This document shows, piece by piece, positions 5,613 to 61,816 of a stretch of 64,000 bases of DNA. The stretch comes from a virus. The stretch is from the IMG/VR virus record IMGVR_UViG_3300017991_000003, positions 32,001-96,000 of that record, one strand, 5' to 3'. The notes below the pieces were generated by a model. The model searched no databases. It was not told the DNA's origin and saw only the letters and a list, made by a program, of their open reading frames with translations. The first letter of the stretch is position 1. Each line of letters starts with the position of its first letter. The translations under genes and the position numbers were made by a program.

Positions 5613-6112
5613 ACACGAACGAGACGACCCAGAGCCTGGAGCTCGACCTCATGCAGAAGATCGCCACGATCATGCACGAGGACGACGCTGTGACGGTGGC
5701 TGATCATGACCCCTTCCTGTCCCTGAGCGATGGTCTCGGCGCCCACGTCGAGCCTGAGGAGGAGACCAAGGAAGCCGAGGCCCAAGAGGAGCTCGAGGAC
5801 GTGGAGGAGCCTAAGACGGCTCTGGCCAGTATGTCCATGGCTCAGGTCTTCCACGCGCCTGAGTTCCGCGAGGGCGTCCAAGAGGCCCTGGCGGCTCGCG
5901 CTGAGGAGATCAGCGAGGCTGTGACCAAGGTGGCGAAGACGAGCTGGTACTCGAAGCACGTCACCGGTCTCGGCAAGAAGTCGAAGACCATGCGGGAGCG
6001 TGCGAGCGACTGGGTCGGCAAGAACAAGGGCAAAGCCCTGGCTGGCGCTGCCGTCGGTGGCGGCATCGTCGGTGCCGGCGTCGCCAAGGGCTCGAAGGAT
6101 CCCTACGCCTGA
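5609..6112 (+). CDS. Hypothetical protein with acidic N-terminal half and C-terminal glycine zipper
   Basis: 167-aa ORF; ATGA overlap with upstream gene; C-terminal AGAAVGGGIVGAGVAKG. Confidence 0.55.
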   Translation: MNTNETTQSLELDLMQKIATIMHEDDAVTVADHDPFLSLSDGLGAHVEPEEETKEAEAQEELEDVEEPKTALASMSMAQVFHAPEFREGVQEALAARAEEISEAVTKVAKTSWYSKHVTGLGKKSKTMRERASDWVGKNKGKALAGAAVGGGIVGAGVAKGSKDPYA

Positions 6113-6125
6113 GACTAGGTGACCG

Positions 6126-6947: not shown

Positions 6948-6956
6948 TCTAAGACC

Positions 6957-10214: not shown

Positions 10215-10232
10215 TCCCGACGGACCTGAAAC

Positions 10233-36486: not shown

Positions 36487-39027
36487 TCAGTTGCGCATAG
36501 CTAGCTCTTCTTCCCGCGTCATGACTCGGGAGGTGCTGGGCTGGGTGATCAGCGGACCACGATCGGGGATCAAGGTCTTGCACCACTCCTGCTCCTCCGG
36601 GAGCAGACGCGCACAGCTGGAGGCCAGCTCAACATCGCCGTTCTCGTCGGCTTCGACGAAGTCGGCCCAGTTCTCTGCGGTGAACAACCGATCCTCGCCC
36701 TTGATCCGAGCGAAGAAGGTGCCGACGGGCGGGACGTTGTCATCGCCCTCTTCAGCCCAGTTGTTGTAGCAGATAGAGGTGTCGGCCAGGATCGGGACAG
36801 ACAGCCCGAACCAGTCGTACTCCATGACGTACTTGATGAGCATGGCCGCCTCTTTGGCGAAGCGGATCGGGCACGCATAGATCAGCTCGTCGTGGACCTG
36901 CCCGATCACCCGTAGGCCTGGGTATCGAGGCAGCACGTACTTGCGGATGATGAACATGTTGGCCTTGATCATGTCCGCCGAGGAGCCTTGCACCTTGGCG
37001 TTCAGGATCTTGCCGGGCATGACGTCGTTGTCGTTGAAGTGACGGTGACGTCCGCTGATCATCAGGAAGCTGCGTTGACCTTTCTGCCACTTACCCTGTA
37101 GCGCCTGCATGTAAGCAGGGATGCCGCTGTAGGTCTGGAAGAAGCCATCACGCCAGAGCGCTGCCTTTTCGATGTCGTACTCGCCCTTAGGCGTGAGTAG
37201 CGGCACCATACGGGCGAACTTCTCCGGCCCCATCCCGTAGTTGAAGCCGAAGTTGACGTTCTTGGCCGGCTTCCGCGGGATCCCGAGGCTCTGCGAGGTC
37301 TTGGCGTGAACATCGCCCGTGTGAAACACGAGCCCGTGGCTCGTGATCGTCTCGTGGTAGACGTTGCGTAGGTTGAAGTCGCCAGTGAAGTGAGAGATCA
37401 CTCGAAGCTCGACCTGGCTCTGGTCGCTGACGATCAGGCAGTAGCCCTCAGGTGCCCACTCATCAGGGGGCGGGCACACGAAGACTTCACGTAGCGCCGG
37501 GCCCAGGCCCTGGATCCTCTCGTCGAAGTGCGCGGGCTTTTTGCGGGAAGGGATGTTCTGGAGGTTGGGTCCAGAACTGCTGAACCGGCCAGTATCCGTA
37601 CCGAAGGAGTTGAAGCGACCGTGCACTTGACCATCCCCGGAGTCTTCAACCTTCTCGCCCATGCTTTCGACATAGGTGCTGAGGAGCTTCGAGACAGTTC
37701 GGAAGTTCAGGATGGCCTGCCCGATCGGATGATCGAGCATGCTCAGCGTGGTGGTGTCCGTGCTGATGTACTGCTCCCGGATCTCGTCCGGGATACGGTC
37801 CGGGTTGCGTAGGTCGACTACGCAGTCTTCCCAGAAGATCCGACCGTTGGCAGGGTTGCGCTTCATGTACCCCTGCTCGAGGCACCACTTGACGCCGTCC
37901 TTGGTCAGCTTCGGTAGCGGGATACGCTCCCCGTTGATCCAAGCCCACCGGAACGTGGGAGGCGTCAGGTACAGCGTCTGGAACAGGAGGGTGCAGAGCT
38001 GCTTCGGGCTGTTGGGGTTGAACTCCTGCTTGGCCAGCTCGTAGCAGTGGGAGCGGAACTCCTCGACTAGCGGACGCATGATATTGCCGCGCTTCTTGAG
38101 CTCCTCGAGATCGATCGTCATACCGGCGATCTCCATGCCGATGGTCTGCCACCGGACATCCATCTCGATCTCCATCCACGTACCTGCGCCATCCTTGCGG
38201 ACCTCGGCGAGGAGCTTACGCAGGAGGGGGAACAGGTAGCGGGCGTCGTCGCGGGCGTAGTCTTTGAGGAGCTTCAGAGCCTGCGCGCGCAGGTTGGCGA
38301 TCTTGGTCTCCGCTCGGGCTGTGTGGGCTCGGACGTAGTCCTCGTACTTCCACCGCTCGAGCTCATCAAAGAGTTCATCCCGCCAGGCCAAGAGAGCGCC
38401 ATTCTCCTCTTTCGACAGGTCCTTGCCGGTGATGCCGCGCTCGTCCAACACTTTCTTGCGGATGGCGTTCCAGGACATGGCAGGGTCGTCGAAGGACGGG
38501 TACGGCCGCCACCAGGTCCCAGGCTGGGACCACTTCTCCAGGTTGTCCTTGTGCATGGCCAGTCGCGCGTTAGTCAGATCGATCTCACGCAGGAGCGGAT
38601 TGTCGAGCGCCGCCTCCTCGTAGGTTGTCATCTGCTTACGCAGCCATTTCTGGACCAGCAGCTTGAGGCCCTTGGGACGCTCCTCGTCAACTGCCCAGGC
38701 GTAGCCGAGCGTGTCGAGGCAGCGGGCCTGCCACTCCTCGTACAGCACCATGCCGGCTCGATGGCCGACGATCACGTCGTAGGGGGCGTTGTGCGCCATC
38801 CCGAACAGCTTCGGGTTCGTAGCTAGGCGCTTGAATGTCTCGCACAGCTCAGGCGTGATCTCGAAAGCCCCGGCGCGGTTAGGTGTCGCCAAAGCTAGGA
38901 CGGTGGGTCGCGCCGTCCACGCGTTCTTCGCGTCCTCAGAGCGTCCGGTCTCCGACTCCGTCTCGAAGTCGAACGCAAAGTAGCCCGTCTCGAGGGCGTC
39001 GGCTTCAATCAGATGTAGAGGATCCAT
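36487..39027 (-). CDS. Family A DNA polymerase with 3-prime to 5-prime exonuclease domain
   Basis: Exo I FAFDFETE; motif A SDQSQVELRV; motif B RKPAKNVNFGFNYG; motif C QVHDELI. Confidence 0.92.
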   Translation of the reverse strand: MDPLHLIEADALETGYFAFDFETESETGRSEDAKNAWTARPTVLALATPNRAGAFEITPELCETFKRLATNPKLFGMAHNAPYDVIVGHRAGMVLYEEWQARCLDTLGYAWAVDEERPKGLKLLVQKWLRKQMTTYEEAALDNPLLREIDLTNARLAMHKDNLEKWSQPGTWWRPYPSFDDPAMSWNAIRKKVLDERGITGKDLSKEENGALLAWRDELFDELERWKYEDYVRAHTARAETKIANLRAQALKLLKDYARDDARYLFPLLRKLLAEVRKDGAGTWMEIEMDVRWQTIGMEIAGMTIDLEELKKRGNIMRPLVEEFRSHCYELAKQEFNPNSPKQLCTLLFQTLYLTPPTFRWAWINGERIPLPKLTKDGVKWCLEQGYMKRNPANGRIFWEDCVVDLRNPDRIPDEIREQYISTDTTTLSMLDHPIGQAILNFRTVSKLLSTYVESMGEKVEDSGDGQVHGRFNSFGTDTGRFSSSGPNLQNIPSRKKPAHFDERIQGLGPALREVFVCPPPDEWAPEGYCLIVSDQSQVELRVISHFTGDFNLRNVYHETITSHGLVFHTGDVHAKTSQSLGIPRKPAKNVNFGFNYGMGPEKFARMVPLLTPKGEYDIEKAALWRDGFFQTYSGIPAYMQALQGKWQKGQRSFLMISGRHRHFNDNDVMPGKILNAKVQGSSADMIKANMFIIRKYVLPRYPGLRVIGQVHDELIYACPIRFAKEAAMLIKYVMEYDWFGLSVPILADTSICYNNWAEEGDDNVPPVGTFFARIKGEDRLFTAENWADFVEADENGDVELASSCARLLPEEQEWCKTLIPDRGPLITQPSTSRVMTREEELAMRN

Positions 39028-39177: not shown

Positions 39178-40539
39178 TCAGCCCGAGAAGGGGTCGCCGG
39201 CCAAGGGGTCCTGCCCCTCAGCCGGCTCCTTACCGTCACCGGCCTGCTGAGCCCCCGCATCCGGGAGATCCTGGAGCGCGCCCAGGGCCGATCCCGACGT
39301 CTGAACCGGCTGAGTCGCCGGAGCTTGCGTCACTTCGGGCTGGGCCGGCGGGGCAAGGGGCCCTCCAAGAGGAGGAGCGGCGGGGGCAGCGGGCGCGGGG
39401 GCTGCGGCAGGTGCGGAGCCGGGAAAGGGCAGGCCGCCACCCTGCGGGGCCGGCTGCGGCGCCGGGGCCTGCTGCGGGAAGAGGCCGCTACCCTGCGCCG
39501 GCTGCTGGAACAGCGGGGTCGGAGCAGGCTGAGGCTGAGCACCGGATTGCTGCATCGGCTGCTGCATCGGCTGCTGCATCGGCTGCTGCATCGGCTGAGG
39601 CGCCGCCCCGGCCGGCGGCATTTGACCATAACCCGCGCCGCCGGGGACCGTGCCGGTTGCTTGGGAGCCAGGACAGATCTGATCCATGACCCCCGCGTTG
39701 TAGGAGAGGCCTCGAACACCCGGGTGCTCGTCGCAGATCTGCCGGTGCAGACGCAGGATTTCACGAGCCTCCGCCTCGGAGTAGGCCGGGTAGATCTTGT
39801 TGAAGTCCACCGAGCCGGCCAGAGCCGCGAAGTCGCCCTCAGGGTTGGGGGCCATGTAGGCCGCTAGGGCTGTGACTAGCTCCTCGGTCGTGCCGAACGT
39901 CTGTCCCTGGTTCTCGCCCAAGTAGTACATCGGCATCCAGTTACCCAGCTTCGGGGCCTGCTTCTCGTGGGTGCGGTTCACGTTCCACACCGAGCCAAGG
40001 ATCGAGCGGTTCTTCATCTGACTGAAGGCCAGGAACTGATCGAGCATGGACTGGTTAGAGAACATGACCCAGCGGATGCTCCACGGGATCGTCTGCTGCT
40101 GCTTGTTGACCCAAGGGGTCATGTTGAGGACGGCCGCGGCCATTCCCAGCATCGGTTTCGGCTTACCGAGAGCGGGTCCGAACAGGTCCGGCTGACCGTT
40201 CTCGACCGGGTTACCCGCGTTATCGACGCCGGTGATGTGGGCAGCACGAACGATCTCCCACGTGGGGAAGCTAGCGTTCGGCGTGTTTTTCCACCCAGTA
40301 GCCACCCGGTAGTGCGGGATGAGGGTGACGTCGGAAAGGAAGGCGACCTGGATCTGCTGGCCGCGGGGCGCGAAGAACTCGCGATGAGGCTTGCGCTCGT
40401 CCCAGGTCTTGGACCACGGTCCGCTGCCGGCACCGATGGAGACGTTCTCGTTCTGGGCGATGGCCTGGTACTGCTGAAGGCCGCCCTGGGCTTGACCGCC
40501 TTGAGCGAAGGGGGTCGCGGGGTTCGTGGGGTCTGTCAT
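39178..40539 (-). CDS. Hypothetical protein with Pro/Gln/Ala-rich low-complexity C-terminal half and acidic tip (candidate SSB)
   Basis: 453 aa between primase and polymerase genes; disordered linker and acidic ...DPLAGDPFSG terminus reminiscent of SSB tails; assignment weak. Confidence 0.55.
   Translation of the reverse strand: MTDPTNPATPFAQGGQAQGGLQQYQAIAQNENVSIGAGSGPWSKTWDERKPHREFFAPRGQQIQVAFLSDVTLIPHYRVATGWKNTPNASFPTWEIVRAAHITGVDNAGNPVENGQPDLFGPALGKPKPMLGMAAAVLNMTPWVNKQQQTIPWSIRWVMFSNQSMLDQFLAFSQMKNRSILGSVWNVNRTHEKQAPKLGNWMPMYYLGENQGQTFGTTEELVTALAAYMAPNPEGDFAALAGSVDFNKIYPAYSEAEAREILRLHRQICDEHPGVRGLSYNAGVMDQICPGSQATGTVPGGAGYGQMPPAGAAPQPMQQPMQQPMQQPMQQSGAQPQPAPTPLFQQPAQGSGLFPQQAPAPQPAPQGGGLPFPGSAPAAAPAPAAPAAPPLGGPLAPPAQPEVTQAPATQPVQTSGSALGALQDLPDAGAQQAGDGKEPAEGQDPLAGDPFSG
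39547..39594. repeat. Four tandem copies of a 12-bp unit
   Basis: Plus strand TGCTGCATCGGC x4 read directly; encodes the QQPM repeats on the minus strand. Confidence 0.9.
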
Positions 40540-40554: not shown

Positions 40555-41574
40555 CTAGAGGAGGGAGGAGTATCGATCTGAGAGGTCTTGTTGCGTCAGG
40601 TACTTCGGGTCCTGATCGAGGTGGTACAGCATGCTAGGCACGCCGTGCTTCGTCAATACTTTGTTGACATTTTTGGCGGCATTCTGACCCTCGACATCGG
40701 GGTCCAGGAGGATGCCCACCAGGGACGGTTCGGAGGCTCGAATCAGCTTGGCCTTCTCCGCTGAGAAGGCGAGCCCGTTGATACCCGCGGCACGAGCCCC
40801 AAGCTGGACCAGGTGCATCGCATCAAAGGGGCCTTCAACCAAGGACAGGGGCTTACCGGCCCCATAGGGCAGTAGATGCTCGCCGAACAGGTGACGGCCG
40901 CTCACGAAAGGCCAGATCGTCCAGTACTTGAGGCCGTTTCCTGCTAGGGGCCGAACCTGTGCTCCGACGCAGCGAACGATGCCGACGTCTGGAGACACCA
41001 GGATGGGGAATACGAGGCAGGGCGCCTTGGTCGTTTTCGGGTTGTCGTATCGGTCGGTCCCCATGCCGTCGTCGGTGTAACCGGCGGGGACGGTGGTGCA
41101 GTAGAACTGCTCGATGGCAAAATCGGGATCGACCCCCTTAGCGGCCAGCACATCCCGTCCGAGGGGGAGCATCGGCACACGTAGCAGGTCAGCTAGGAAC
41201 ACGGTGTAGTCCGTGTCCGGGGTCGTACGGGTCTGTCGAGTGACGCCGGCAGCGGAGAAGTCCAGGCTTTCTAGCGCCAACTCCCGCTCTCGGGCCTTCA
41301 TCTGGAGGGCCAATCCCGCATACTGACCACCACTGAGGCGGTTCAGCTCGAGGAGCGTATCCCCCAGTGATGACAGGTGTTTACACGCGTGGCACTTCAG
41401 GAGGGTCACTCCAGGACCCACCGTCGCGGTCATCGACGGCCTTCGATCAGATCCTTTCCCATGAGTCCACGGAGCCAGCAGGCAGGAAAACTTCACATGG
41501 CGGTCCCCCGCGGGTCGAAGCTCCCCCGCTTGGGGCAGCTGGGCGAGGACGGTTCGGAGCTCTACCTCTTGCAT
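40555..41574 (-). CDS. DnaG-like DNA primase (zinc-binding plus TOPRIM-like)
   Basis: CHC2-like CLLAPWTH...CHACKH; LVEGPFDAMHL and LLDPDVEG TOPRIM-like acidic motifs; start set at internal Met to avoid overlapping the divergent fibre gene. Confidence 0.65.
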   Translation of the reverse strand: MQEVELRTVLAQLPQAGELRPAGDRHVKFSCLLAPWTHGKGSDRRPSMTATVGPGVTLLKCHACKHLSSLGDTLLELNRLSGGQYAGLALQMKARERELALESLDFSAAGVTRQTRTTPDTDYTVFLADLLRVPMLPLGRDVLAAKGVDPDFAIEQFYCTTVPAGYTDDGMGTDRYDNPKTTKAPCLVFPILVSPDVGIVRCVGAQVRPLAGNGLKYWTIWPFVSGRHLFGEHLLPYGAGKPLSLVEGPFDAMHLVQLGARAAGINGLAFSAEKAKLIRASEPSLVGILLDPDVEGQNAAKNVNKVLTKHGVPSMLYHLDQDPKYLTQQDLSDRYSSLL

Positions 41575-41632
41575 CTTTTCGGGTTCTCGGGGTTGGACTT
41601 CATAAGCTAAGACAGGGGAGGACCCCACACAC

Positions 41633-44600
41633 ATGGCCGATAACGTCCAGCTCTACGACGCGCATCTAAACCTCTGGACCCTCAGGACATCCGAGGACAC
41701 AGAAATCCACACGCCGCACCACGTGTCGCGGCTGGCGGACGGGGAGGGGCGCTTCTACAGGCCCGGACGGCCGGTACCTGTGTCGATCTACGGGACGGAC
41801 GGGGTCGAGATCAACATCGAGGCCGGCTCGATCGCTGTCAGCACAGACCACAACGAGGACTCAGTAGCGGTCTTCGGGTCGTCGACCCCTGAGGGGCTGG
41901 AAAACTTCAGGTCGCTGGTGGTGGACCCCCAGGGGCACCTCCAGACCACAGTGGTCTCAGCGCCTGGGGTGGAGCCCGTCGGGGACTCGCCCGACGCGGG
42001 GCAGCTAGGTACGGTCATCCTAGGGGTCCAGGTAGGGGCAACGCCAGCTAGTCAGGTCACGGGGGACGGTCGGACAGCCCCTCTGATCATGGACGATCGG
42101 GGCCGGCTCTTCGTCTCTTTCGGCAACTCCGTCGCGGTTCTGCCCTTCACGCAAAAGGGTGACCTACTTACTTATGACGGATCTGACGAAGTTGTCCTGG
42201 GCCCGACGGTCGACGACGCGCTTCTGACACTGGACTCCAGTACCAGTACCGGCCTCAGGTGGGTGAGCCCGGTGACGAGCTCCCCCAGCCCCGTGCTCTT
42301 CCTACGCGAGGATCTAACATGGGCTCTGCCCTCAGCAGGGGCACCGGGCGGGGCTGCGGGCGGAGACTTGGGCGGGACCTATCCGAACCCGTCTGTGGTC
42401 GCTATCCAAGGGATTTCCACTTCTGCGGCTGCGCCAACGCCTGGGCAGACCTGGGTGTACACCGGCAGCGCTTGGAGTCCGGGAAGCCCGGCTACCGGAG
42501 CTGCTACGGACCACGGGACGCTCACAGGGCTCCTCGACGATGATCACACCCAGTACATCCTGGCTGATGGCTCTCGAGACTTCTCAGGCTCAATCGGCAT
42601 GGGTGGGAATGAGATCACGGATGTGGCCTCTCCTATCCTCGTATCCTGGGCAGCTAACAAGGGTTACGTTGATGATCAGATCACCGCGTCCGTCATCACG
42701 GACCACGGCGGGCTAGGCGGGCTCGGGGATGACGACCATACCCAGTACGTGTTGGTGGCTGGCACTCGTGCGTTCACGGGCGATCAGAGCCTAGGCGGTA
42801 ACAAGATCACGAGTCTGGGGTCCCCGACCACCGCAAGCGATGGAGCCAACAAAGGTTACGTCGACGCTAACGTGGTCACGGACCACGGCGCTTTGATCGG
42901 GCTGGGGGATGATGACCACACCCAGTACATCCTGACTGCGGGGACTCGAGCCTTCAGTGGTAACCAGAGCCTAGGCGGCAACCTGATCACAAGCCTAGGC
43001 TCGCCTACTACCGCAAGTGGTGGTGCTAACAAGGGTTACGTTGACGCGGCTATCACGTCGGCAGTGATCACGGATCACGGAGGGCTTGGCGGCCTGACGG
43101 ACGACGACCATACGCAGTACGTCCTGGTCGCAGGTACTCGAGCGTTCACAGGCAGCCAGAGCCTGGGCGGTAACCTGATCACGTCGCTAGGGTCTCCTAC
43201 TGTTGTAAGTGACGCAGCTAACAAAGGTTACGTTGATGCGCAGATCCCGACGAGCCTACCCCCTAGCGGGGCTGCTAGTGGTGATCTAGGCGGCACGTAC
43301 CCCGGGCCTACTGTGGTGGCCATTCAAGGCACCGGAGTCAGTGCAAACGCTCCAAGTACTGGTGATGGCCTGGTTTACACCGGAGCGGCTTGGAGTCCGA
43401 CCGCGGTCTATCGACCTGGCGGGACGGATGTGGCTGTGGCAGACGGGGGCACCGGGGCGTCGGACGCGTCCACGGCGCGTAGCAATCTAGGCCTGACCAT
43501 CGGGCTCGACGTCCAAGCCCACTCCGCAGTTCTTGACGCTACAACGGCCAGTTACACAACCGCGGCCGAGGGTAAGCTCTCGGGCATCGAGACCAACGCT
43601 GATGTCACGGACACAGCCAACGTGACGGCCGCTGGCGCTGTCATGATCGGCACAACGGCCGCGGCCGGGGACCTGAGCGGTACCTACCCGAGCCCGACGG
43701 TCGTGGCCATTCAGGGGACTGGCGTCTCGAGCACTGCGCCGAGCTCTGGGCAGGCCCTGATCTACTCCGGCACTGTCTGGAGCCCCAGCACGCTCCCCAG
43801 CGGGGTGACGGACCACGGGGCCCTGACCGGACTCGGAGACGACGACCATACCCAGTACATCCTGGTTGGTGGCACTCGCGCCTTCACGGGCAACCAGTCG
43901 ATGGGCGGCAACCTGCTCACGTCGTTGGGGAGCCCGGTGGCGGTAACAGACGCAGCTAACAAGGGTTACGTCAATGCCTCGATCACCGCGGCCGTCGTCA
44001 CGGACCACGGGGCCCTTGACGGGCTGGCCGATGACGACCACACCCAGTACCACAACGACGCTCGGGCGCTGACGTGGTTGGGGACGCGCGACACAGATGA
44101 CCTGGACCCGAGCGCCACCCGTCTCTACATGAGCCCGGGTGAGCGCACCAAGCTCGCCGGGATCGAAGCGCTTGCCGATGTGACCGATGCGGCCAACGTG
44201 GCCGCGGCCGGCGCTGTCATGGTCGGTGACGCTGCGGGCGGTGATCTTAGCGGTACCTACGCAAACCCGTCCGTGGTCGCGATCCAGGGTACGGGTTGCT
44301 CTTCAGCAACGCCGACCGCCGGCCAGACCTGGGTCTACTCCGGGTCCCAGTGGAGTCCTGGCTCACCCGCTGTTGGTGGCGCGTCAGATCACGGAACCCT
44401 GACCGGGCTGGGCGACGACGACCACACTCAGTACATTCTTGTTGACGGTACACGGGCCTTCACAGGCGCAGTTAGTCTCGGTGGGAGCCAGATCAACAGC
44501 CTGGCTTCGCCCACGCTCCCAGCAGATGCAGCCAACAAGGGCTACGTCGACGACCAGATCCCGACGAGTCTACCCCCTAGCGGGGCAGCGTCTGGCGACC

Positions 44601-45409
44601 TTGGTGGGACCTACCCGGGCCCAGACGTGGTGGCTATCCAGGGGACCGCGGTCAACTCGGCGACGCCGACGACGGGTGAGGCCCTGCTCTACTCGGGAAC
44701 GCAGTGGAGCCCTGGGCCGATCAACTTCCTCGAGCTCAACGACGTCGATCCCACAGGCCTGACCAACCTCGACCTGTTCTACTACAGCTCGGCGTCGGGG
44801 ACTATCGTCCGGTCTAGCGGCCTCACGACCTACGCGTTCTACACGCACAGCGGATCGCACATCCACGGACAGTACGACGCAATCGACGGGGATCAGCTAT
44901 CGATCACCCAGCCGGGCGTCAACTACTCCCCGACGACCGACGCGACATACGGCACCAACACGGCGCACCTCGCTGCCCATCTGCGGGGTATCGGTCTGGT
45001 CCTGGAGGATGTCAGTCCCGCGGTCACCAAGCTCGCCGGGATCGAGGCGGGCGCTGAAGCCAACGACGTTCAGACCAAGAGCATCACGATCGAGGCGCCG
45101 ACCACGACGGAAGACATCTCGTTCTTCTACGCTCCGGTAGCGATGACGATCTCAGAGATGGTCACGGTCCTGGTGGGCTCTCCTACGCCGTCCCTAGCGT
45201 GGACGCTCCGGCACAGCACCGACAGGAGCGCTGTGGGCAACGAGGTCATCACCGGGGGATCCACGGCGAATAGTACGACGACCGGTAACGTGCTGACCTC
45301 CTTCAACGACGCAACGGTCCCAGCCAACTCCTTCCTGTGGGTTGAAACGGCGAGCCCCAGCACGAACGTGACGAGCTTCCAGCTCAGCGTTGAGTACACC
45401 GACGACTGA
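41633..45409 (+). CDS. Tail fibre / receptor-binding protein with internal repeats
   Basis: 1258 aa; seven copies of a unit containing TDHGxLxGLxDDDHTQY...GANKGYVD and five copies of a second unit DLxGTYPxPxVVAIQGT; AGGGGAGGA ribosome-binding site before ATG. Confidence 0.7.
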   Translation: MADNVQLYDAHLNLWTLRTSEDTEIHTPHHVSRLADGEGRFYRPGRPVPVSIYGTDGVEINIEAGSIAVSTDHNEDSVAVFGSSTPEGLENFRSLVVDPQGHLQTTVVSAPGVEPVGDSPDAGQLGTVILGVQVGATPASQVTGDGRTAPLIMDDRGRLFVSFGNSVAVLPFTQKGDLLTYDGSDEVVLGPTVDDALLTLDSSTSTGLRWVSPVTSSPSPVLFLREDLTWALPSAGAPGGAAGGDLGGTYPNPSVVAIQGISTSAAAPTPGQTWVYTGSAWSPGSPATGAATDHGTLTGLLDDDHTQYILADGSRDFSGSIGMGGNEITDVASPILVSWAANKGYVDDQITASVITDHGGLGGLGDDDHTQYVLVAGTRAFTGDQSLGGNKITSLGSPTTASDGANKGYVDANVVTDHGALIGLGDDDHTQYILTAGTRAFSGNQSLGGNLITSLGSPTTASGGANKGYVDAAITSAVITDHGGLGGLTDDDHTQYVLVAGTRAFTGSQSLGGNLITSLGSPTVVSDAANKGYVDAQIPTSLPPSGAASGDLGGTYPGPTVVAIQGTGVSANAPSTGDGLVYTGAAWSPTAVYRPGGTDVAVADGGTGASDASTARSNLGLTIGLDVQAHSAVLDATTASYTTAAEGKLSGIETNADVTDTANVTAAGAVMIGTTAAAGDLSGTYPSPTVVAIQGTGVSSTAPSSGQALIYSGTVWSPSTLPSGVTDHGALTGLGDDDHTQYILVGGTRAFTGNQSMGGNLLTSLGSPVAVTDAANKGYVNASITAAVVTDHGALDGLADDDHTQYHNDARALTWLGTRDTDDLDPSATRLYMSPGERTKLAGIEALADVTDAANVAAAGAVMVGDAAGGDLSGTYANPSVVAIQGTGCSSATPTAGQTWVYSGSQWSPGSPAVGGASDHGTLTGLGDDDHTQYILVDGTRAFTGAVSLGGSQINSLASPTLPADAANKGYVDDQIPTSLPPSGAASGDLGGTYPGPDVVAIQGTAVNSATPTTGEALLYSGTQWSPGPINFLELNDVDPTGLTNLDLFYYSSASGTIVRSSGLTTYAFYTHSGSHIHGQYDAIDGDQLSITQPGVNYSPTTDATYGTNTAHLAAHLRGIGLVLEDVSPAVTKLAGIEAGAEANDVQTKSITIEAPTTTEDISFFYAPVAMTISEMVTVLVGSPTPSLAWTLRHSTDRSAVGNEVITGGSTANSTTTGNVLTSFNDATVPANSFLWVETASPSTNVTSFQLSVEYTDD
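42507..43250 (+). repeat. Four tandem in-frame copies of a ~186-bp (62-aa) repeat in the fibre gene
   Basis: DDDHTQY codon strings recur at about 42537, 42731, 42911 and 43101. Confidence 0.85.
43801..44560 (+). repeat. Three further copies of the same 62-aa repeat interleaved with AIQGT-motif units
   Basis: DDDHTQY codon strings at about 43845, 44033 and 44413. Confidence 0.8.
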
Positions 45410-46545
45410 TGAGTGACTTCCTAGTCCAGCGCGATCAGACCGACGTGCCCACCGCCGGCACGACTGCGTCGATCACCGCCGTCTCGAGCCTGAACTCTGC
45501 ATTCGAGATGATGAGCAGCAACCGCCGGATGTCTGGCGGCCCCTCTGCGGTTACGACCAACCAGGAGGCTGATGACCTCTCCGCGGCCGGCGTGCTCACA
45601 GACACGAGCACGATCACCTACTCGCGAGTCTCCGGGTCGAGCTCGAACACGATGCGCTGCGCCATGGAGGTGGTGGAGTACACGGGCCCAGCGGGCGGCC
45701 CCAACGAGTTCATCGTGCGGGGGCGGTACACAGGTCTACTGACCGGCGGCACCAACTCAGTAAGTGTCACCGTGTCCGGTGTCTCTGACAAGGACAGGTG
45801 TATCCCGATCATCACCGGCATCTTGTGCGAGGACACAACGGACGGGGGTGCCCGGGCTACCGGTCTGGTCCTGCTCACAAACGCGACTACCGCAGTGGTC
45901 TATGCAGGCGGGTCCGCCTCTCGTGTGACTGTGCACTTCACGCTAGTTGAGTTCACTGGATCGGCGTGGACTGTCGGGCACGCTGCGGCTGGTCCTGTCT
46001 CGGCTGACTCGGGGTCCGCTACGATCGTCACGGGATCAAACGGCTCGAGCGGAACGACCGTGGATGTCGGGGACTGGGGTACCGCTTGCATCTTCGCGCA
46101 TCATGCGGGCGATCTGGGCTCGGACGCCAATCAGGCCATCGCAGATAACTGGCCCAACATCACACCCACCTCCGGGAGCACGACCTCAGTCGACTACACC
46201 TTCAACTCCCAGCACGACGGGGTCAACAACCTACACCTGGCTCACGTTCTCCAGCACGACGATATGGTCGTGCAGCGGATCACAGACACTGGCAGCCATA
46301 CCGGGGCACGGAACGTGTCGATCCCGTCCACGCTCTCGTCTATTAGCGAGGCTTTCGTGCGAGTGTGCCGAACCTCGAGCGGTGCGGGTACGGCCTACGG
46401 CCGTGGTTGGGTCAACGCCCGGCTGACTACGACCAGCAACGTAGAGCTCTGGGTCCACCGAAACGGCAACTCGATCGATACCCGCATCGAGGTTGTTGAC
46501 CTCTCTAGCATCTCCTCGGCTACCAGGAGGATCTTCGTCGTCTGA
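45409..46545 (+). CDS. Beta-rich tail fibre-associated protein
   Basis: ATG overlaps fibre stop (TGATG); Ser/Thr/Gly-rich 378-aa ORF. Confidence 0.6.
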   Translation: MSDFLVQRDQTDVPTAGTTASITAVSSLNSAFEMMSSNRRMSGGPSAVTTNQEADDLSAAGVLTDTSTITYSRVSGSSSNTMRCAMEVVEYTGPAGGPNEFIVRGRYTGLLTGGTNSVSVTVSGVSDKDRCIPIITGILCEDTTDGGARATGLVLLTNATTAVVYAGGSASRVTVHFTLVEFTGSAWTVGHAAAGPVSADSGSATIVTGSNGSSGTTVDVGDWGTACIFAHHAGDLGSDANQAIADNWPNITPTSGSTTSVDYTFNSQHDGVNNLHLAHVLQHDDMVVQRITDTGSHTGARNVSIPSTLSSISEAFVRVCRTSSGAGTAYGRGWVNARLTTTSNVELWVHRNGNSIDTRIEVVDLSSISSATRRIFVV

Positions 46546-47354
46546 TGACTGACAACATCCGAATCCAGACGGTCGACGGAGAGCGGTGGATCCGCACCTC
46601 CGAGATCGGCGGGGTCCACCACCCACACCACATCGCGCGCCTGTCCGACGGCTTGGGCGTGGTGTACAGTCCGGGCTATCCCGTCCCGGTCTCGATCTTT
46701 TCCGCAGATGGGTCGGCAACCATTACGCTTAGCGGCGGCGACCTAGCTGTTGGTCTGGACCATACCGAGGACTCGATCACGATCTGGGCGCACACCAACG
46801 CGGCGGGCTCCGGCAGCCCTGTCGCTGTCGTGGTCGACACCGATGGCCACCTCCAGGTCGACGTGCTCTCGAGCGATTGGCCGCAGCAACCTTTCGACGA
46901 ACCGGTACCAGCTGAGTACTCCGGCATGGTTATGCTCGGGGTCCAGACGGGTAGCCCTGAAGCACAAGCCACGGATGGCGCCTTCGCGCCCTTCCAGTTT
47001 GACAAGCAGGGTCGCCTGATCGTATCGATCGACCAGTCCTACCAAGGCGGGGCCTTGAAGCTGGTATCGGCCACCAAGACGAGCCCGTTCGTCGTGTGGG
47101 AGGATGATGTGCCCGCCTCTCTCCACTATGTCGACGTCTATCGTTGTTCTGGAACGTACACAATTGGCCTCCCTTCTCCCGCTGATCCCGCGGCAGCGGA
47201 TGGCCGAGTAGTCTGGATCAAGAACATAGGCACAGGCATGCTTACACTGAGTCCTGAAGGCGGGACCCTTGAGCTCAAAGCGGGGCTACTGCTAGCTAGC
47301 CGATCCTCTATCACCTTGCGCTCCAACACTGTAGACGACTGGGAGATTCTCTAA
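46545..47354 (+). CDS. Second fibre-like protein sharing the N-terminal domain of the 41633 fibre
   Basis: Residues 1-130 align by eye with the fibre N-terminus (shared HHxxRLxDG, YxPGxPVPVSI, DPxGHLQ blocks); ATG overlaps upstream stop. Confidence 0.6.
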   Translation: MTDNIRIQTVDGERWIRTSEIGGVHHPHHIARLSDGLGVVYSPGYPVPVSIFSADGSATITLSGGDLAVGLDHTEDSITIWAHTNAAGSGSPVAVVVDTDGHLQVDVLSSDWPQQPFDEPVPAEYSGMVMLGVQTGSPEAQATDGAFAPFQFDKQGRLIVSIDQSYQGGALKLVSATKTSPFVVWEDDVPASLHYVDVYRCSGTYTIGLPSPADPAAADGRVVWIKNIGTGMLTLSPEGGTLELKAGLLLASRSSITLRSNTVDDWEIL

Positions 47355-48127
47355 TGACGTTCCTACCGCTCGACACAGACTATTACGCCGCCGTCGAGGC
47401 AGGCGAGGTTCCAGGTGCGACCCTGCTCAACAAGTTTGGCAGGGCGGAGATCGGGACATCGTTGACGCCTATCAGTCGGGAGCTGGTCTACCAGACCCCT
47501 ACAACGGCCACAGTGCTGGAGTTTGTATCGGATGATGCCAACGATACGAGCGCAGGGACTGGGGCTCGGGAGATCTCGATCATTGGCCTGAACTCCTCGT
47601 GGGAGGAGGTGATGCAGACCGTCACAACAAACGGGACAACAGCGGTAGCCCTCTCGACCCCGCTAATCAGGATGTATCGGTGGTACGTGACGAAGTCCGG
47701 AACCTACGCCACGTCATCAACGGGATCACATGCCGGGACGCTGACTATCCAAGAATCTGGTGGCGGCACGGTGTGGTCGTCAATCGGCGTAACACCCTTC
47801 CCCACCGGGCAGTCCCAAATCGGGATCACGACCATCCCCATCGGTAAAAGAGGCGTCCTGCTGTCTACTCACGTGTTCGTTGACACGTCTAAGAGTGTTG
47901 ATCTGTACCTGTTTCAGCGGCCTAACGCGGACGTCGTTACAGCGCCCTACACAGGAGCGATGCGCGTTGTTCGAGAGTTCCAGGGTGTCACAGGCCCGAT
48001 TACCTACGTTCCCCGCGGAGGGGCCGGCGCATTCGTCGGGCCTTGTGATATCGGGTTTATGGGCCAGGTAACAGTTGGCACGGCCGCTGTGTCCTGCGAC
48101 TTCGAGCTGCTTCTGCTAGATCTTTAG
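47354..48127 (+). CDS. Beta-rich tail fibre-associated protein
   Basis: 257-aa ORF; ATG overlaps upstream stop (TAATG). Confidence 0.6.
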   Translation: MTFLPLDTDYYAAVEAGEVPGATLLNKFGRAEIGTSLTPISRELVYQTPTTATVLEFVSDDANDTSAGTGAREISIIGLNSSWEEVMQTVTTNGTTAVALSTPLIRMYRWYVTKSGTYATSSTGSHAGTLTIQESGGGTVWSSIGVTPFPTGQSQIGITTIPIGKRGVLLSTHVFVDTSKSVDLYLFQRPNADVVTAPYTGAMRVVREFQGVTGPITYVPRGGAGAFVGPCDIGFMGQVTVGTAAVSCDFELLLLDL

Positions 48128-48129
48128 GT

Positions 48130-48164
48130 AAAAAAGAGGAGAGTAGCGAGCCGCTGCCCTCCTC
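48130..48164 (-). terminator. Putative intrinsic terminator for the minus-strand block
   Basis: Stem GAGGAG 48136-48141 / CTCCTC 48159-48164 with nested stem; on the minus strand it is followed by CUUUUUU. Confidence 0.4.
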
Positions 48165-48208
48165 CACACCGTGGGTCATCACCCCCTAGGATCCTCCCCG
48201 CAGTGTCG

Positions 48209-49174
48209 CTAGATCTGGTACGCGTCCAGCGGCGTGCCGCGGGTCATCCCCAGCCTGAAGCCAGCCGCCTTCGCGTGACCGCCACCGGAGATGGCGATGC
48301 CGCGGTCGAACAAGTCGCGCGCGACGGCCGAGACGTCGATGTCGTTGTCTGCGTGAGTGCGGAGACTGACGATAAGCTGATTGGTATCTCGATCAATGCG
48401 CCAGTTGCCCACAATCGCATCGCCCATCTTGTTGTAGAGAAGCTCAGCAGCCTCAGAGATGTAACGATCCTCAGGAGCCAACCACATCTGGTACCCGCCG
48501 ATCTCGTACAGCGAGACGTTGTAGTTGCTCTCGGCTGCTTGCTTGTAGATGTGCCGGCGGATGCCTCGACCCTCGGCCACAAGCCGGTCCCGGCCATCCG
48601 GGCAATCAAGACTTTGGTTGAGCATGTCCCAGTTCTCCCAGTGCCGGGGATAGCTCTGGATAGCAGCGGCAATCTCCTCAGTGTCCGGAAGCTCCTTCAG
48701 CCATAGATCACGATCACGGATGTACTCGATGAGCGGGGTCGAGTGCTCGAAGAGCAGACGATTTGTCAAAGACGCTCCGCACTCCTCCATGTCGAACACG
48801 GCGAAGTCCCGGCATCCGCTGAGCGCATCCTTGGCGGTCTTGTGGTGATCGATGACCACCAGGTTCTTCATGCGCTCGAGCCAAGCGAGCAGGACATCAC
48901 GGCCCCAAGAGAAGTCCACGATGATGATCTGCCAACCATCCGGGACCTCTGGCACGGTGCCGTCGTAGTTGACTCCGCTGAAAGTCAGCTGGGTCTTACC
49001 GTCCCACAACGTATCGAACCCCTTGCAGAGATCCGTGAAGCCGTGGGCCATGAACCACTTGCGAACAAGCCACGCAGCCGTGAAGCCATCGGAGCAGGGG
49101 TCGTGATAGAACACGACTGTCGGGACGTCCAGGAGGATGCGGACGCCAGGCTCACTTCGGGGCTTGATAGACAT
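48209..49174 (-). CDS. DHH-family phosphoesterase (NrnA/RecJ-like)
   Basis: Motif I YHDPCSDG, DHH motif VVIDHHK, DHHA1 GGGHAKAAGF. Confidence 0.65.
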   Translation of the reverse strand: MSIKPRSEPGVRILLDVPTVVFYHDPCSDGFTAAWLVRKWFMAHGFTDLCKGFDTLWDGKTQLTFSGVNYDGTVPEVPDGWQIIIVDFSWGRDVLLAWLERMKNLVVIDHHKTAKDALSGCRDFAVFDMEECGASLTNRLLFEHSTPLIEYIRDRDLWLKELPDTEEIAAAIQSYPRHWENWDMLNQSLDCPDGRDRLVAEGRGIRRHIYKQAAESNYNVSLYEIGGYQMWLAPEDRYISEAAELLYNKMGDAIVGNWRIDRDTNQLIVSLRTHADNDIDVSAVARDLFDRGIAISGGGHAKAAGFRLGMTRGTPLDAYQI

Positions 49175-50198: not shown

Positions 50199-51593
50199 CT
50201 AGTAGGCAGCCTGACCACCGCTGCTCGCCATGTCCTGGACAGGGCCGAGCTGCGCGAACCGCATGTCGTAGAGATCCCATTGAACACGATAGGGTTGGTC
50301 GACCGCACCGTCTCGGACCTTGCCGAGCTTCATGTCGATGACGCGGGCGTTGTTACCGGCATCCTTCGGCGGTACCAGGAAGACGAGGTTGTTGGAGTCG
50401 TGCGAGATGCTCTGGCTGAAAGCCACAGCATCAGCGTTCGACCGGGCCAGCGTGCCTTCATTTCGGCGCAGCTGCGTGGCCAGCATGTAGTGACGGTTGG
50501 ACATCAGCGTATGCAGACGCATCTGCCGCATGTTGCCCTCCACCTTCTGCCAGCGCTCCTTACCAGGGCCCTCCATGTAGTAGAAGCCGTCGATCAAGAC
50601 CAGGTCCGCGCCAAACTCCTCAGCCTGTGCGGCAACCTGATCAGGAGTCGTAGCCTGGTTAGGGCCCACGATGCGCAGGTTCTCACCAACGCGAGCGTGC
50701 GGCCCGTCTGCTTTCAGGCTACGCAATGCCTCGAAGTAGGCCGCCTTCTCCACGTCACTTAGCTTCTGCTTCATGAGGCGGTTGAAGCTAGTGCTCGAGA
50801 GCACCGCGGCTTGGCGTCGAGCCACATCGATGGGTGCCATCTCCAGACTGACGATCAAGACCCGAGCGCGGGCGGCGTCCTTCTGCTCCTGCGTCCACGC
50901 CGGGATGTCGGGTGGGCGGTGGAAGATGTAGGGATCTCCCAGGAGGCCGGCGGCACTGTTGAGCACGATGAACCAAGTCTTGCCGAGGCCGGTAGGAGCC
51001 ACACAGCTGGTGATCTGCGCAGGGTGCCAGCCCCCAAGCTGTTCCTGAATGAACAGGAACGGACAAGGGATGCCGAGCTTCACGCCGGCCAGCCGATCGT
51101 TGTAGTCCTGCTCGAGATCCTCAGCGTACTCTCGGAAGTCCTTGATCTCCGTCTTGTGTGCCGAGTACCTAGCTTGCAACGTATGAGCGTACAAGGACAT
51201 CGCGTCCTTGATGTCGAACGGGTCGGTGCGCTCGGTCAGCTGCTTGTGAAGATCCTGAAGGCTCTCTAGCACATCTACACGCACCGCCTCCTTAGCGACT
51301 TCGTCGTAGAGAACCGAGATGCTCGCTTCCGGGATCTCAGTACCAGCCAAGATCGTGGGAAGCTCAGGCCAGGCGCGCTGCGCCGTGTCAGGCGTAGGAA
51401 GCTCGTTGTACTGTGCTCGGTACCCGACGACCCACTCGATGATCTCCGTCATCGGCTCTTGAAAGAACCCGGGGTTGAGTCCGTTCTTGGCGACGTGGTG
51501 GTCGAAGGCGGCTAGGTTCCGGTCACTCAGGATCTTGGTCAGGAAGAGAGCCTCGACCCTGTCTCGAGAGTTGACGTTGGTGAACCCGGTCAC
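50199..51593 (-). CDS. DnaB-like replicative DNA helicase
   Basis: Walker A APTGLGKT, SLEM motif VLIVSLEM, LVLIDGFYYM and LATQLRRNEG segments. Confidence 0.75.
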   Translation of the reverse strand: MTGFTNVNSRDRVEALFLTKILSDRNLAAFDHHVAKNGLNPGFFQEPMTEIIEWVVGYRAQYNELPTPDTAQRAWPELPTILAGTEIPEASISVLYDEVAKEAVRVDVLESLQDLHKQLTERTDPFDIKDAMSLYAHTLQARYSAHKTEIKDFREYAEDLEQDYNDRLAGVKLGIPCPFLFIQEQLGGWHPAQITSCVAPTGLGKTWFIVLNSAAGLLGDPYIFHRPPDIPAWTQEQKDAARARVLIVSLEMAPIDVARRQAAVLSSTSFNRLMKQKLSDVEKAAYFEALRSLKADGPHARVGENLRIVGPNQATTPDQVAAQAEEFGADLVLIDGFYYMEGPGKERWQKVEGNMRQMRLHTLMSNRHYMLATQLRRNEGTLARSNADAVAFSQSISHDSNNLVFLVPPKDAGNNARVIDMKLGKVRDGAVDQPYRVQWDLYDMRFAQLGPVQDMASSGGQAAY

Positions 51594-59495: not shown

Positions 59496-61394
59496 TCAGG
59501 GGTAGATGGGGAGGGTGGCTTCTGTTTCGGACTTGTTGCAGAAGGCGATCTCCTCGAGGAGGACATCGTCTTCCATGTCGTCGGGGTCCTCGAGGACTCC
59601 GTCCATCTCGAGCACCAGTCGATCCATCTGATCGAGGATCTCTTGGTAGTCCTTGCGGTAGGGAATGCCGGCGTTCTGGGCCGCCTTGCGGACGACAAAG
59701 TAGGTCAGCCGGAACCACTCGAGCAGGACGCCGTCGGAGTCCTCTCGCGAGAATGCCTCGACGTAGCTCAGGTTGGTCTCGATCACGGTCTCGATCACGG
59801 TGTCGATCGACGTCTCGGGGAACACAGTTTTCACCGTCGGGTCGGCGTAGACGTATTTCGAGAGCTTGTCGATCCGGGCATCCAGTGCGATCGACTTGAA
59901 TAGCCGGTCGAGAAGGTCGTCGATGCGATTCATCACCTCGTCGATGACGTCTCGAACCAGCATGCTGTAGAGGGTCTGACGACTCTCGGATGCGCTGTTC
60001 TGCGCTTCTTCGACGATCTCTTCGATCGTGGGGGCGTTATCGAACCACTCACTGGTCGAGGCGTGGTTCATGAGCAGATGCAGGGCTAGGGCCGTAGCGT
60101 TGCTCGACGTCAGACTGTCCTTGAACGAGGTGCAGTACGCCCACACGGCTCGTGGGAAGGTCGTTTGCTGACCCTCCGCCTTCTTGATCAGCTGAAGGGG
60201 GTAGTGCGCTTGCGGTGAGATCACCATGCCGTAGAAGCCGGTGTGCATCCGCTGGATGCGGAACTTCTTATCAGCGACCAGCGAAGGGCCAGAGGCTGTC
60301 TTGCTGACAGGTACCAGTGAGGTAGTCGTCTTCTTCGTCGTCTGGCCAAGGCCACCCTGCGCCCCCGTACCCCCAGTCTTGCCGCCAGGAGTCGAAGGCG
60401 TACCCGCTTTGCCGCCGGTCCACTTTTTCGAGCCATAGCCGCCATACCTGCTGGTCTTGGCTTTCTTCTCCGCCTCCTTGATGGCCTCGCTGGCCAACTT
60501 GAACGTGGTAAGACAACGGGCGGCCTCGCCCATCCTGTCCTTCCAACGCCCCAGGCTTTCCATCGACCCACAGAAGGTCATCACAGTGCTCGTGTCGACG
60601 TCCTCGAGCTTGTCGACGCTGAGACCGACGGCGAGCTCGTCGGGATCGACCCCGGCCTTCAGCATGGCTTCGCACAGTCCGGGGTGGGCGACCCGGTTCA
60701 GCCACAGCTGAATCAGATCCAGGCCGCCCTCCACGAAAGGGATGTCGAACAACTCCTCGAGACCGGTCGCGTGGCGGATGCCCTGCGCCTTCTCGTTGCG
60801 GTAGCCGGGGAGGGCGGTGACGAACGACGGGCACACCGAGAAGGGCGGCTTGTCCACGTTCCCGAAGGTGATGTGGAAGCCCGTCTGGTTGAGCTCGTTG
60901 GCGTCGTCGGTCGAGCTGTGGTAGGCTCCACCAGCGCCGTGACTGTGCGCGGTGCCGACGCAGATGAACTCGACAAGCTCTCCATCCTCGCAGATGGGGC
61001 AAGCGTTGCCGGCTTCGAGCTCGATCGAGCCGATGCGACAGGTCGTGCAGAAGCTCTTGACGTTGGGATCGTACTTCACGTGCCCCGCGGAGGCGGTGTA
61101 CCACGGCGGACTGACGAGGGTGTAGGCGTCGTCGACCGGCCCTCGGTGGAAGAGCACGAAGGCCTCGGTCTTCCACAGGCGGTAGACCTCGGCGAAGTAG
61201 CGGTAGACGAACATCGTCTCCGCCATGGAGATCTTGGGCCAGTTGGTGAGGTCCAGGTCACGCTGGATCTGGTCGGTTTCACCGAGGTCCTCGGCCCGGG
61301 CGGGAACGAAGGCCTGAGCCCAGGCGGCCCCGCCTGGGCCGATGGTCTTCAGCACGTGGGCTTGGTTGCCCTTGTAGTAGATGTCGGTGGTCAT
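59496..61394 (-). CDS. JAB/JAMM metallopeptidase-domain protein with zinc ribbon and large C-terminal domain
   Basis: Exact JAMM signature HSHGAGGAYHSSTDD preceded by CTTC...CPIC; GC3-rich codons checked across the gene; start at internal Met giving ATGA overlap with upstream gene. Confidence 0.7.
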   Translation of the reverse strand: MTTDIYYKGNQAHVLKTIGPGGAAWAQAFVPARAEDLGETDQIQRDLDLTNWPKISMAETMFVYRYFAEVYRLWKTEAFVLFHRGPVDDAYTLVSPPWYTASAGHVKYDPNVKSFCTTCRIGSIELEAGNACPICEDGELVEFICVGTAHSHGAGGAYHSSTDDANELNQTGFHITFGNVDKPPFSVCPSFVTALPGYRNEKAQGIRHATGLEELFDIPFVEGGLDLIQLWLNRVAHPGLCEAMLKAGVDPDELAVGLSVDKLEDVDTSTVMTFCGSMESLGRWKDRMGEAARCLTTFKLASEAIKEAEKKAKTSRYGGYGSKKWTGGKAGTPSTPGGKTGGTGAQGGLGQTTKKTTTSLVPVSKTASGPSLVADKKFRIQRMHTGFYGMVISPQAHYPLQLIKKAEGQQTTFPRAVWAYCTSFKDSLTSSNATALALHLLMNHASTSEWFDNAPTIEEIVEEAQNSASESRQTLYSMLVRDVIDEVMNRIDDLLDRLFKSIALDARIDKLSKYVYADPTVKTVFPETSIDTVIETVIETNLSYVEAFSREDSDGVLLEWFRLTYFVVRKAAQNAGIPYRKDYQEILDQMDRLVLEMDGVLEDPDDMEDDVLLEEIAFCNKSETEATLPIYP

Positions 61395-61816
61395 GTGGTG
61401 ATCAGGGGTGGGTGGAATCGACGTAGGACGGTCAAGACCGCCTGGGTGTCTTCGTTGATGTCTTGCTCGGCTAGTAGGTGATCGAGCCGGCGCATCCAAT
61501 CACGTAGGGTCGTGAGCTGCTCGGGGCCCATGCTCGCCGGAGGGTCGACGACAGGACGTCGGTCGCTCTCGTCTCGGATCAAGTTGAAGCGGATGTTGTT
61601 GATCCTTCCACCGTCTAGCGCAACTGGATAGGTGCGTTGGAAGATCTGACCAAGAGCCTCGATCATCTCTCGAGTAAGACCCGTCCCCTCAAGATCGAGA
61701 AGGTGCGGTCGGTTCTCGAGGATCCGAGATAGAAGCTCCTCGCGTCTCCGGATAATGGCCTGGTGATCATTGTGTCGATCACGCGCGCCTTGCACGGTGT
61801 CCAGAATGGTGGTCAT
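61391..61816 (-). CDS. Hypothetical protein (operon member)
   Basis: 141 aa; ATGA overlaps at both ends (61813-61816 and 61391-61394). Confidence 0.55.
   Translation of the reverse strand: MTTILDTVQGARDRHNDHQAIIRRREELLSRILENRPHLLDLEGTGLTREMIEALGQIFQRTYPVALDGGRINNIRFNLIRDESDRRPVVDPPASMGPEQLTTLRDWMRRLDHLLAEQDINEDTQAVLTVLRRFHPPLITT

Follow-up and report, generated by a model that had tools for sequence, protein, structure and literature searches.

In the Mu G segment and the P1 C segment, which invert, and in Mtd of BPP-1, which is varied by a diversity-generating retroelement (DGR), one and the same N-terminal part can bear different distal parts. Modular fibres and tailspikes such as T7 gp17, K1F gp17, and the first receptor-binding protein of the Klebsiella KP32 type have an N-terminal part that does not vary inside a phage group and a distal part that is recombined and sets specificity (PMC6872550). 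In K1-5, K1E, and SP6, the small adaptor gp37, which is little else than an attachment part, links the separate receptor-binding proteins gp46 and gp47 to the virion (PMC6966330, PMC6872550). Here, we describe a block of four genes in a 64,000-nt stretch of viral DNA (positions 32,001 to 96,000 of IMG/VR virus record IMGVR_UViG_3300017991_000003; hereafter the window, numbered from its first letter), in which a 1258-aa protein and a 269-aa protein begin with homologous modules belonging to two lineages, A and B. Constant anchors with exchangeable tips are already well established, and this finding extends the catalogue.

The locus is similar to the T7 gp17 type in that the N-termini of the lineage-A proteins (first 170–350 residues) are 67–72% identical while shaft and tip differ. 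No homology to the T7 gp17 N-terminal domain itself is found (noise only in Pfam at E ≤ 1; profile search of the PDB at E ≤ 1). Unlike that type, the anchor here is made of a short head and two units of a widespread repeat, and two paralogous anchors occur in one phage, with their genes in the replication module. The likeness to gp37 of K1-5 and SP6 lies in module-only or small proteins (183–269 aa) followed by partner genes without the module, in the exchange of these partner genes between relatives, and in the fusion of partner domains to repeats elsewhere; the differences are that the interaction between the two proteins is postulated here and that in one relative (locus L001) a partner gene for the small protein is missing. 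G7C (gp66/gp63.1) and CBA120 (TSP1–4) also have more than one fibre or spike gene per cassette, the products putatively forming one multi-component organ here as they do there; in those phages, a single protein bears the anchor and the rest are attached to it, whereas two proteins with homologous N-terminal modules are present here. In contrast to Mu, P1, and BPP-1, both genes are complete and in the same orientation, with no flanking inverted repeats found, and no template/variable pair of the BPP-1 kind links the reverse transcriptase gene of the window to the cassette.

Two proteins of the gene block share an N-terminal module

Open reading frame (ORF) calling in the window gives four + strand ORFs that make up the block 41633–48127. 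Gene 1 (41633–45409) encodes the 1258-aa fibre protein with the lineage-A module, gene 2 (45409–46545) a 378-aa partner protein, gene 3 (46545–47354) the 269-aa protein with the lineage-B module, and gene 4 (47354–48127) a 257-aa protein of phrog_8198, a candidate distal partner of gene 3. The junctions between genes 1 and 2, 2 and 3, and 3 and 4 read TGATG, TGATG, and TAATG, respectively, and one base is common to stop and start in each, which bears out the earlier statement that the four genes are joined by 1-nt overlaps. The start of the block at 41633 given in the preliminary description is correct, whereas its end at 47354 is not, because the gene block reaches 48127.

BLASTP of the 1258-aa protein against the 269-aa protein gives a single significant segment, covering residues 1–166 and 1–165, respectively, with 70 of 168 positions identical (42%), 57% positives, and E = 2e-32. 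The remaining segments all have E > 4, and the two proteins are unrelated beyond about 165 residues; that they diverge outside the shared blocks had been noted before. The Smith-Waterman score is 304, compared with 34.5 ± 5.9 in 500 shuffles (z = 46). The two proteins are therefore paralogous at their N-termini, and the preliminary description, which named a nonsignificant N-terminal alignment as its refutation, holds in this respect. All the conserved blocks that it listed are found (PHHxxRLxDG, YxPGxPVPVSI, VDxxGHLQ, VxLGVQxG, and DxxGRLxVS); the shared region exists but extends over about 165 residues rather than the ∼130 residues claimed. The module occupies 41633–42136 in gene 1 (residues 1–168; BLASTP match, profile positions 1–167) and 46545–47045 in gene 3 (residues 1–167; BLASTP and profile match).

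Nucleotide identity between the two modules is 0.58, 0.66, and 0.38 at the first, second, and third codon positions, and a direct-repeat search of the window finds no DNA-level repeat joining the two regions. Because third positions are 38% identical and no such repeat is detected, the module duplication is, judged from the sequences, old. The same two observations rule out recent gene conversion between the copies. Both genes have orthologues with 62–73% identity in related metagenomic phages, which indicates that genes 1 and 3 are real and maintained.

Composition of the shared module

A profile of the module was searched against 1.84 billion representative proteins at E ≤ 0.001, and 303 protein clusters were matched. 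About a dozen of them match the whole profile (positions 1–167), always at their own N-terminus, in proteins of 183–1841 aa. Approximately 290 of the 303 match only positions ∼54–167, at any place in the protein and often in 2–12 tandem stretches. Separate hidden Markov models (HMMs) divide the module into a head and two repeat units, unit A and unit B. In gene 1, the head HMM covers residues 1–56 (41633–41800), and the profile and the unit HMMs place the two β-repeat units of ∼50 aa at 41816–42127. Unit A comprises about residues 62–112 with the pattern 'EDSh.hW..T...G.G....VVD.DGHLQVDVLS', and unit B about residues 113–165 with the pattern 'G.hhLGV.....DG...P...D..G.L.V'; the two units weakly cross-match each other. 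As the head HMM matches neither unit, we reject the idea that the head represents a further, third repeat copy.

In each of the 18 protein clusters and 6 IMG/VR loci with the head, it lies no more than 11 residues from the start of the protein. Its first ∼32 residues form a portable N-terminal peptide, MxDNhxh…hRTxE..GhHxPHH, in which His26, Pro28, His29, and His30 (the HxPHH motif) are invariant in the four closest sequences. The same peptide also starts otherwise unrelated fibrous proteins in IMG/VR contigs (L018–L024): a 578-aa protein in L018, a 438-aa protein in L019 and L020, where the contig also encodes a J-like tail protein, and a 674-aa protein in L021–L024, in which 17-aa repeats and a phrog_1645 domain follow. 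In L023, which derives from a T4-like phage, the gene stands among those for head closure, sheath stabiliser, terminase, sheath, and portal. The preliminary description took the entire shared region as a virion-attachment domain. This is compatible with the first ∼56 residues, which are specific to the N-terminus, but not with residues ∼57–165, which are repeats that occur in the middle of proteins elsewhere.

No Pfam family covers the repeat units, and most of the PHROG families that they match are of unknown function. Among cultured or deposited phages, they occur in one podovirus genome only, in an 846-aa protein encoded directly after the portal gene. A search of the PDB sequences with the module profile gives no match at E ≤ 1, and the domain family of the module is undescribed. 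Protein P0032 of contig L014 (3619–6192) has nine unit-B repeats and a phrog_8198-like C-terminal domain, and other genes of this contig (1263–1814, 14428–16192) specify a RING-finger protein and a eukaryote-type, multi-domain Rpb2 subunit of RNA polymerase, which suggests that the repeat family reaches nucleocytoplasmic large DNA viruses.

One lineage-A and one lineage-B module in each related locus

Related loci were reached via homologues, and 14 modules were placed in a neighbour-joining tree. The modules split into lineages A and B (bootstrap 199/200), and each of the five complete related loci (the window, L001, L015, L009, and L010) has exactly one module of each lineage. A six-frame search of the 64-kb window finds no third copy.

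The gene orders, with the lineage letter before the length in residues, are as follows. The window has A1258 – 378 – B269 – 257, and L015 (a 145-kb contig) has A732 – 382 – B268 – 407 with the same 1-nt overlaps. L001 has A697 – B268 only. In L009 (a 149-kb contig), five genes separate the two in the order A227 – 165 – 537 – 526 – 103 – 188 – B1841. In L010 (a 183-kb contig), A933 is on one strand, and an esterase gene, B191, and a gene for a 66-aa Cys-rich protein are on the other. The long fibre is thus not tied to one lineage, being A in the window and B in L009, and lineage-B modules are borne by proteins of 188 to 1841 aa. Some proteins in the relatives (183, 188, 189, 191, and 227 aa) are little more than the module with a tail of 20–65 aa.

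Two features accompany the short lineage-B proteins. In L010 (12857–14657, − strand), the 191-aa B gene, on the strand opposite to the lineage-A fibre, starts on the last base of a gene for a BD-FAE-type esterase (342 aa), and the 66-aa protein encoded after it is rich in CxxC pairs and has an acidic tail. L013 likewise has a BD-FAE gene close to its B gene. As part of the fibre apparatus, the esterase might serve to modify the receptor. Furthermore, the short lineage-B proteins of 188–191 aa (L008, 31–600; L010, 13054–13629, − strand; L013, 117–683) end in a common tail, '...GSFTT.D...TVTV.NGYITSIT' or '...KTLSIVNGLIAAIS', possibly a short strand to which another protein docks.

Fibre character of gene 1

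The 1258-aa protein matches the tail-fibre families phrog_2710 (E = 8.6e-23), phrog_11393, phrog_26630, and phrog_11338, and tail-fibre families are also matched by the relatives of 697, 933, and 1841 aa. In its shaft, it is 33% identical to the annotated tail fibre of the cyanopodovirus Synechococcus podophage S-B28. The shaft (42353–44643) is composed of the direct-repeat families D2, D3, D5, and D6, with seven copies of TDHGxLxGLxDDDHTQY...ANKGYVD and five of GDLGGTYPxPxVVAIQG. The C-terminal domain (residues 1128–1258; 45014–45406) is homologous to the C-termini of P0007, P0008, and P0010, the last ∼130 residues being 64% identical to them, and is replaced by unrelated sequence in the 697-aa protein of L001 and the 933-aa protein of L010. 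The first 309–350 residues of the lineage-A orthologues are conserved at the identity given above, and shaft length and C-termini differ; the orthologues in related phages are 697–1165 aa long, and the range including the window protein is 697 to 1258 aa.

Two of these orthologues, P0007 (858 aa) and P0008 (1165 aa), agree at both ends, and their apparent difference is an internal tandem duplication of about 307 residues. On the sequence alone, this would be a fibre-length polymorphism within one phage population.

Partner genes and fused forms

The 378-aa and 257-aa proteins do not have the module. The 378-aa protein has no Pfam, PHROG, or PDB match. It belongs to a family of about 29 homologous clusters with a core of ∼375 aa and very different C- or N-terminal extensions. 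Its gene occurs together with the gene 1 C-terminal domain in two loci, the window and L015, whereas L001 lacks the gene. The family extensions include Ser/Pro-rich tails. One member has a signal-peptide-like start, and two members are automatically named 'trimeric autotransporter adhesin'.

The orthologues of the 269-aa protein are 268 aa long and 62–65% identical to it. Its C-terminal domain of ∼100 residues (47046–47351) is conserved in the 268–269-aa lineage-B orthologues, with 59–60% identity to the 268-aa proteins of L001 and of L005 and L015, about as conserved as the module; no other homologues of this domain are found. The protein matches no PHROG or Pfam family and has no fibre or receptor-binding signature. 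PDB sequence searches with it yielded nothing informative, and the same holds for Pfam and PDB searches with the 257-aa protein.

The gene after the lineage-B gene varies. It encodes the 257-aa protein (phrog_8198, E = 1.6e-17, a function-unknown family) in the window and an unrelated 407-aa protein in L015, and is absent in L001. The 407-aa protein belongs to phrog_1645, 'virion structural protein' (E = 2.8e-85), a family that matches 179 cultured-phage records, mostly cyanomyoviruses, many of which are annotated as 'virion structural protein'. The two gene-4 proteins have only their first three residues, MTF, in common. Both are found fused to repeats elsewhere. Residues 618–775 of P0032, directly behind its nine unit-B repeats, are homologous to the 257-aa protein (E = 6e-11), and in P0117 the C-terminal 390 residues, likewise behind unit-B repeats, are homologous to the 407-aa protein (E = 4e-60). 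In the L023 protein, the N-terminal peptide and the phrog_1645 domain are found in one chain. What is encoded here as a module protein and the next gene is therefore a single polypeptide elsewhere, with the module elements N-terminal and the gene-4 domain C-terminal.

Predicted structure of the module

AlphaFold2 (AF2) prediction of the module with a 31-sequence alignment gives a pLDDT of 76.5 and a pTM of 0.28. The model is locally confident and extended, with a β-meander at residues 5–27 and no compact fold. The structure prediction suggested in the preliminary description thus yields local confidence, but neither a compact fold nor a fold match. Such a locally confident, non-globular model is as would be expected for one chain of an intertwined fibre. 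The model of the whole 269-aa protein (4-sequence alignment) has a pLDDT of 33 and is unusable.

Genomic setting

The cassette lies on the strand opposite to the adjoining genes, which make up a replication module. DNA polymerase A (36487–39027, − strand) and a Toprim primase (40555–41433, − strand; 292-aa gene call, Pfam Toprim_2) precede it, the latter diverging from the cassette across an intergenic region of ∼200 nt. At the other end, a DHH/DHHA1 phosphoesterase gene (48209–49174, − strand; Pfam DHHA1) is convergent with the cassette, followed by a Destabilase-type lysozyme (Pfam Destabilase) and DnaB (50199–51593; Pfam DnaB_C). UvrD-, RecA-, and ResIII-type genes are farther off. The Toprim primase gene neighbours the cassette in L001, L009, L010, L015, and the P0017 contig, and in the related loci with enough upstream sequence the module-bearing genes adjoin it in the same replication module. 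A scan of the cassette for sigma-70 promoters and terminators gives counts at chance level.

The contigs carrying the cassette are 174,660 and 193,018 bp, corresponding to a large uncultured phage (∼175–193 kb); the G+C content of the window is ∼62%. The cassette has no match in 50,697 phage records by blastn (DNA) or tblastn (protein), and the DNA polymerase A of the window reaches no more than ∼30% identity with its counterpart in any of these deposited phages, from which we conclude that the window represents a lineage without a cultured relative. A scan of 185,579 species genomes for prophages or hosts finds no relatives, and a metagenome scan re-found L001 and nothing else.

Elements that could switch or diversify the fibre genes were sought. 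An invertible segment is rejected, as 41000–48600 contains only four short (18–28 nt) imperfect inverted pairs; both module genes are complete and on the same strand, and a Pfam scan of the neighbouring genes finds no recombinase domain. A reverse transcriptase gene is present at 62652–63755 (− strand; Pfam RVT_1, 4.4e-14), beside a 280-aa ORF (61813–62655, − strand) and a gene for a 667-aa protein (59496–61499, − strand) with a weak JAB-domain match. A DGR acting on the cassette is rejected, because no template/variable repeat links 57–64 kb to the rest of the window; the reverse transcriptase may belong to a DGR with repeats past base 64000 or to a retroelement of another kind.

Strong low-complexity runs occur in three − strand ORFs of the window (15909–16202, 21376–21516, and 39178–40539). 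A 588-aa ORF contains a long Glu/Asp-rich stretch, the RecA-like protein has a Lys-rich N-terminus, and a 453-aa protein encoded between the polymerase and the primase has 'PMQQ' Gln/Pro repeats and no family match.

Discussion

The reading that we prefer, with somewhat better than even confidence, is that one constant, virion-proximal module is carried by two co-expressed, non-interchangeable fibre components. The block 41633–48127 would then be a host-recognition (fibre) cassette at a fixed spot beside the primase gene. The module would form the virion-proximal end of both the 1258-aa and the 269-aa proteins, its head docking on the particle or nucleating assembly there, and its repeat units would make up the beginning of a shaft that is probably trimeric. 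Specificity would be determined by variable parts facing outward, namely the shaft and C-terminal domain of gene 1 and the separately encoded 378-aa and 257-aa proteins. Because genes 1 and 3 are translationally coupled, their products are expected to be made together, and since both an A and a B are retained in all relatives, the two probably occupy different positions or have different roles. The deep split between A and B, the retention of both, their presence in one coupled operon, and the lack of a switch in the window suggest two coexisting, non-redundant components. The 269-aa protein is probably an adaptor carrying the product of gene 4, judging from the module-only proteins of 183–227 aa, the swapped partner gene, and the fused forms.

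Several observations weigh against this proposal. The module has no match in Pfam, the PDB sequences, or the annotated PHROGs, and a Foldseek search of its model against the PDB and BFVD gives nothing significant (best E = 0.014, TM 0.17). Myovirus-like as well as siphovirus-like contigs carry the N-terminal peptide, and it is difficult to see how it would dock to one particular baseplate protein on tails so different; a self-assembly role fits equally well. The rule of one A and one B rests on five loci. The adaptor role is weakened by the B protein of L001, which has no downstream partner gene, by that of L009, which at 1841 aa indicates that B is not always an adaptor, and by a Pfam search that finds no T4 gp10-like domain in the 269-aa protein. 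Receptor-binding proteins are usually, though not by strict definition, encoded in or next to the tail module, and this cassette stands between the primase and the DHH/Destabilase/DnaB genes in the window and all relatives, with no recognisable tail genes beside it. The ten upstream ORFs (41–10985), considered as a structural module, give one PHROG match, to a function-unknown family. Moreover, the 1258-aa protein (3.8e-17) and its 933-aa relative have a match to phrog_2647, 'head decoration', and both phrog_2647 and phrog_1645 are filed under 'head and packaging'. Finally, while the paralogy, the composite module, the pairing of A with B, the exchange of domains and genes, and the fused forms are seen in the sequences, the presence of the proteins in the virion, docking, trimer formation, and the adaptor role are what we infer.

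The preliminary description called the two proteins alternative receptor-binding proteins. Taken as two interchangeable proteins that use the same tail socket and confer two host specificities, this is unlikely in our view. The same N-terminal module is indeed combined with unrelated distal parts, and phages with dual receptor-binding systems are well documented (PMC6872550, PMC6966330). However, modules that are only 42% identical and form two deeply separate lineages, each kept in every relative, are not what interchangeability predicts, and the 269-aa protein has no receptor-binding signature and a conserved C-terminus, the variation being located in the gene after it. Thus, paralogues with a common N-terminal module and exchanged distal parts remain from the earlier interpretation, the word 'alternative' is doubtful, since both lineages are always retained, and the 269-aa protein resembles an adaptor rather than a receptor-binding protein. 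The module might instead anchor decoration or whisker-like fibres to the capsid or collar for loose, reversible adhesion. The phrog_2647 match and the filing of phrog_1645 point that way, as do the position of the L023 peptide gene between sheath-stabiliser and terminase genes and beside neck genes, the unit-B repeats on a contig with Rpb2 and RING-finger genes that possibly comes from a tailless giant virus, and the location of the cassette outside the tail module. Set against them are four tail-fibre PHROG matches to one of head decoration, homology to annotated tail fibres, and shafts of variable repeat length with swapped tips, which are typical of tail fibres; PHROG categories are also coarse for 'virion structural protein'. 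Head or neck fibres are accordingly rather improbable.

Equally doubtful is a role of the shared region as a folding or trimerisation nucleus with generic shaft repeats, with attachment provided at another site or by further proteins. Repeats that occur mid-protein elsewhere, in up to 12 tandem copies, account for two thirds of the region, the N-terminal peptide is found in phages of very different tail types, and the extended shape of the AF2 model suits an intertwined fibre. A metal might be bound by the invariant His cluster on a three-fold axis, where T4 fibre proteins also have a His metal site. Nevertheless, the strictly N-terminal head in 24 of 24 cases and the stand-alone modules of 183–191 aa favour a free, engaging end, and the known folding nuclei of phage fibres are mostly C-terminal. 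It is very improbable that the cassette encodes non-virion proteins expressed alongside the replication genes, for instance superinfection-exclusion factors or adhesins on the surface of the infected cell. The location of the cassette inside the replication module would suit this, as would the 378-aa family with its signal-peptide-like member and two 'trimeric autotransporter adhesin' names. On the other hand, no obvious signal peptide or membrane segment is seen by eye in the 1258-aa and 269-aa sequences, tail-fibre PHROGs are matched, the gene-4 family of L015 is annotated as virion structural protein, and the strand is opposite to that of the replication genes, which makes the cassette a separate transcription unit.

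Beyond the preferred reading of two non-interchangeable fibre components, the HxPHH peptide of ∼32 aa might, as a tentative and rather unlikely extension, be a portable 'plug' that works across lineages for very different virions, those of T4-like myoviruses, of siphovirus-like phages, and of this unclassified ∼180-kb lineage. Here it would be split into two socket-specific versions, A and B, giving each genome two independently swappable host-recognition arms encoded outside the structural module.

The pairing of A with B and the location of the cassette in the replication module are mildly unusual and testable. The rule of one A plus one B predicts two distinct mounting positions. The N-terminal peptide and the repeat units, none of which is in Pfam, would offer a handle for finding fibre genes of metagenomic phages, also outside the structural module, and the module boundary would suggest a cut point for specificity-domain swaps. 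If the proposal is true, the module marks the constant virion-proximal end of fibres in large environmental phages without a cultured relative.

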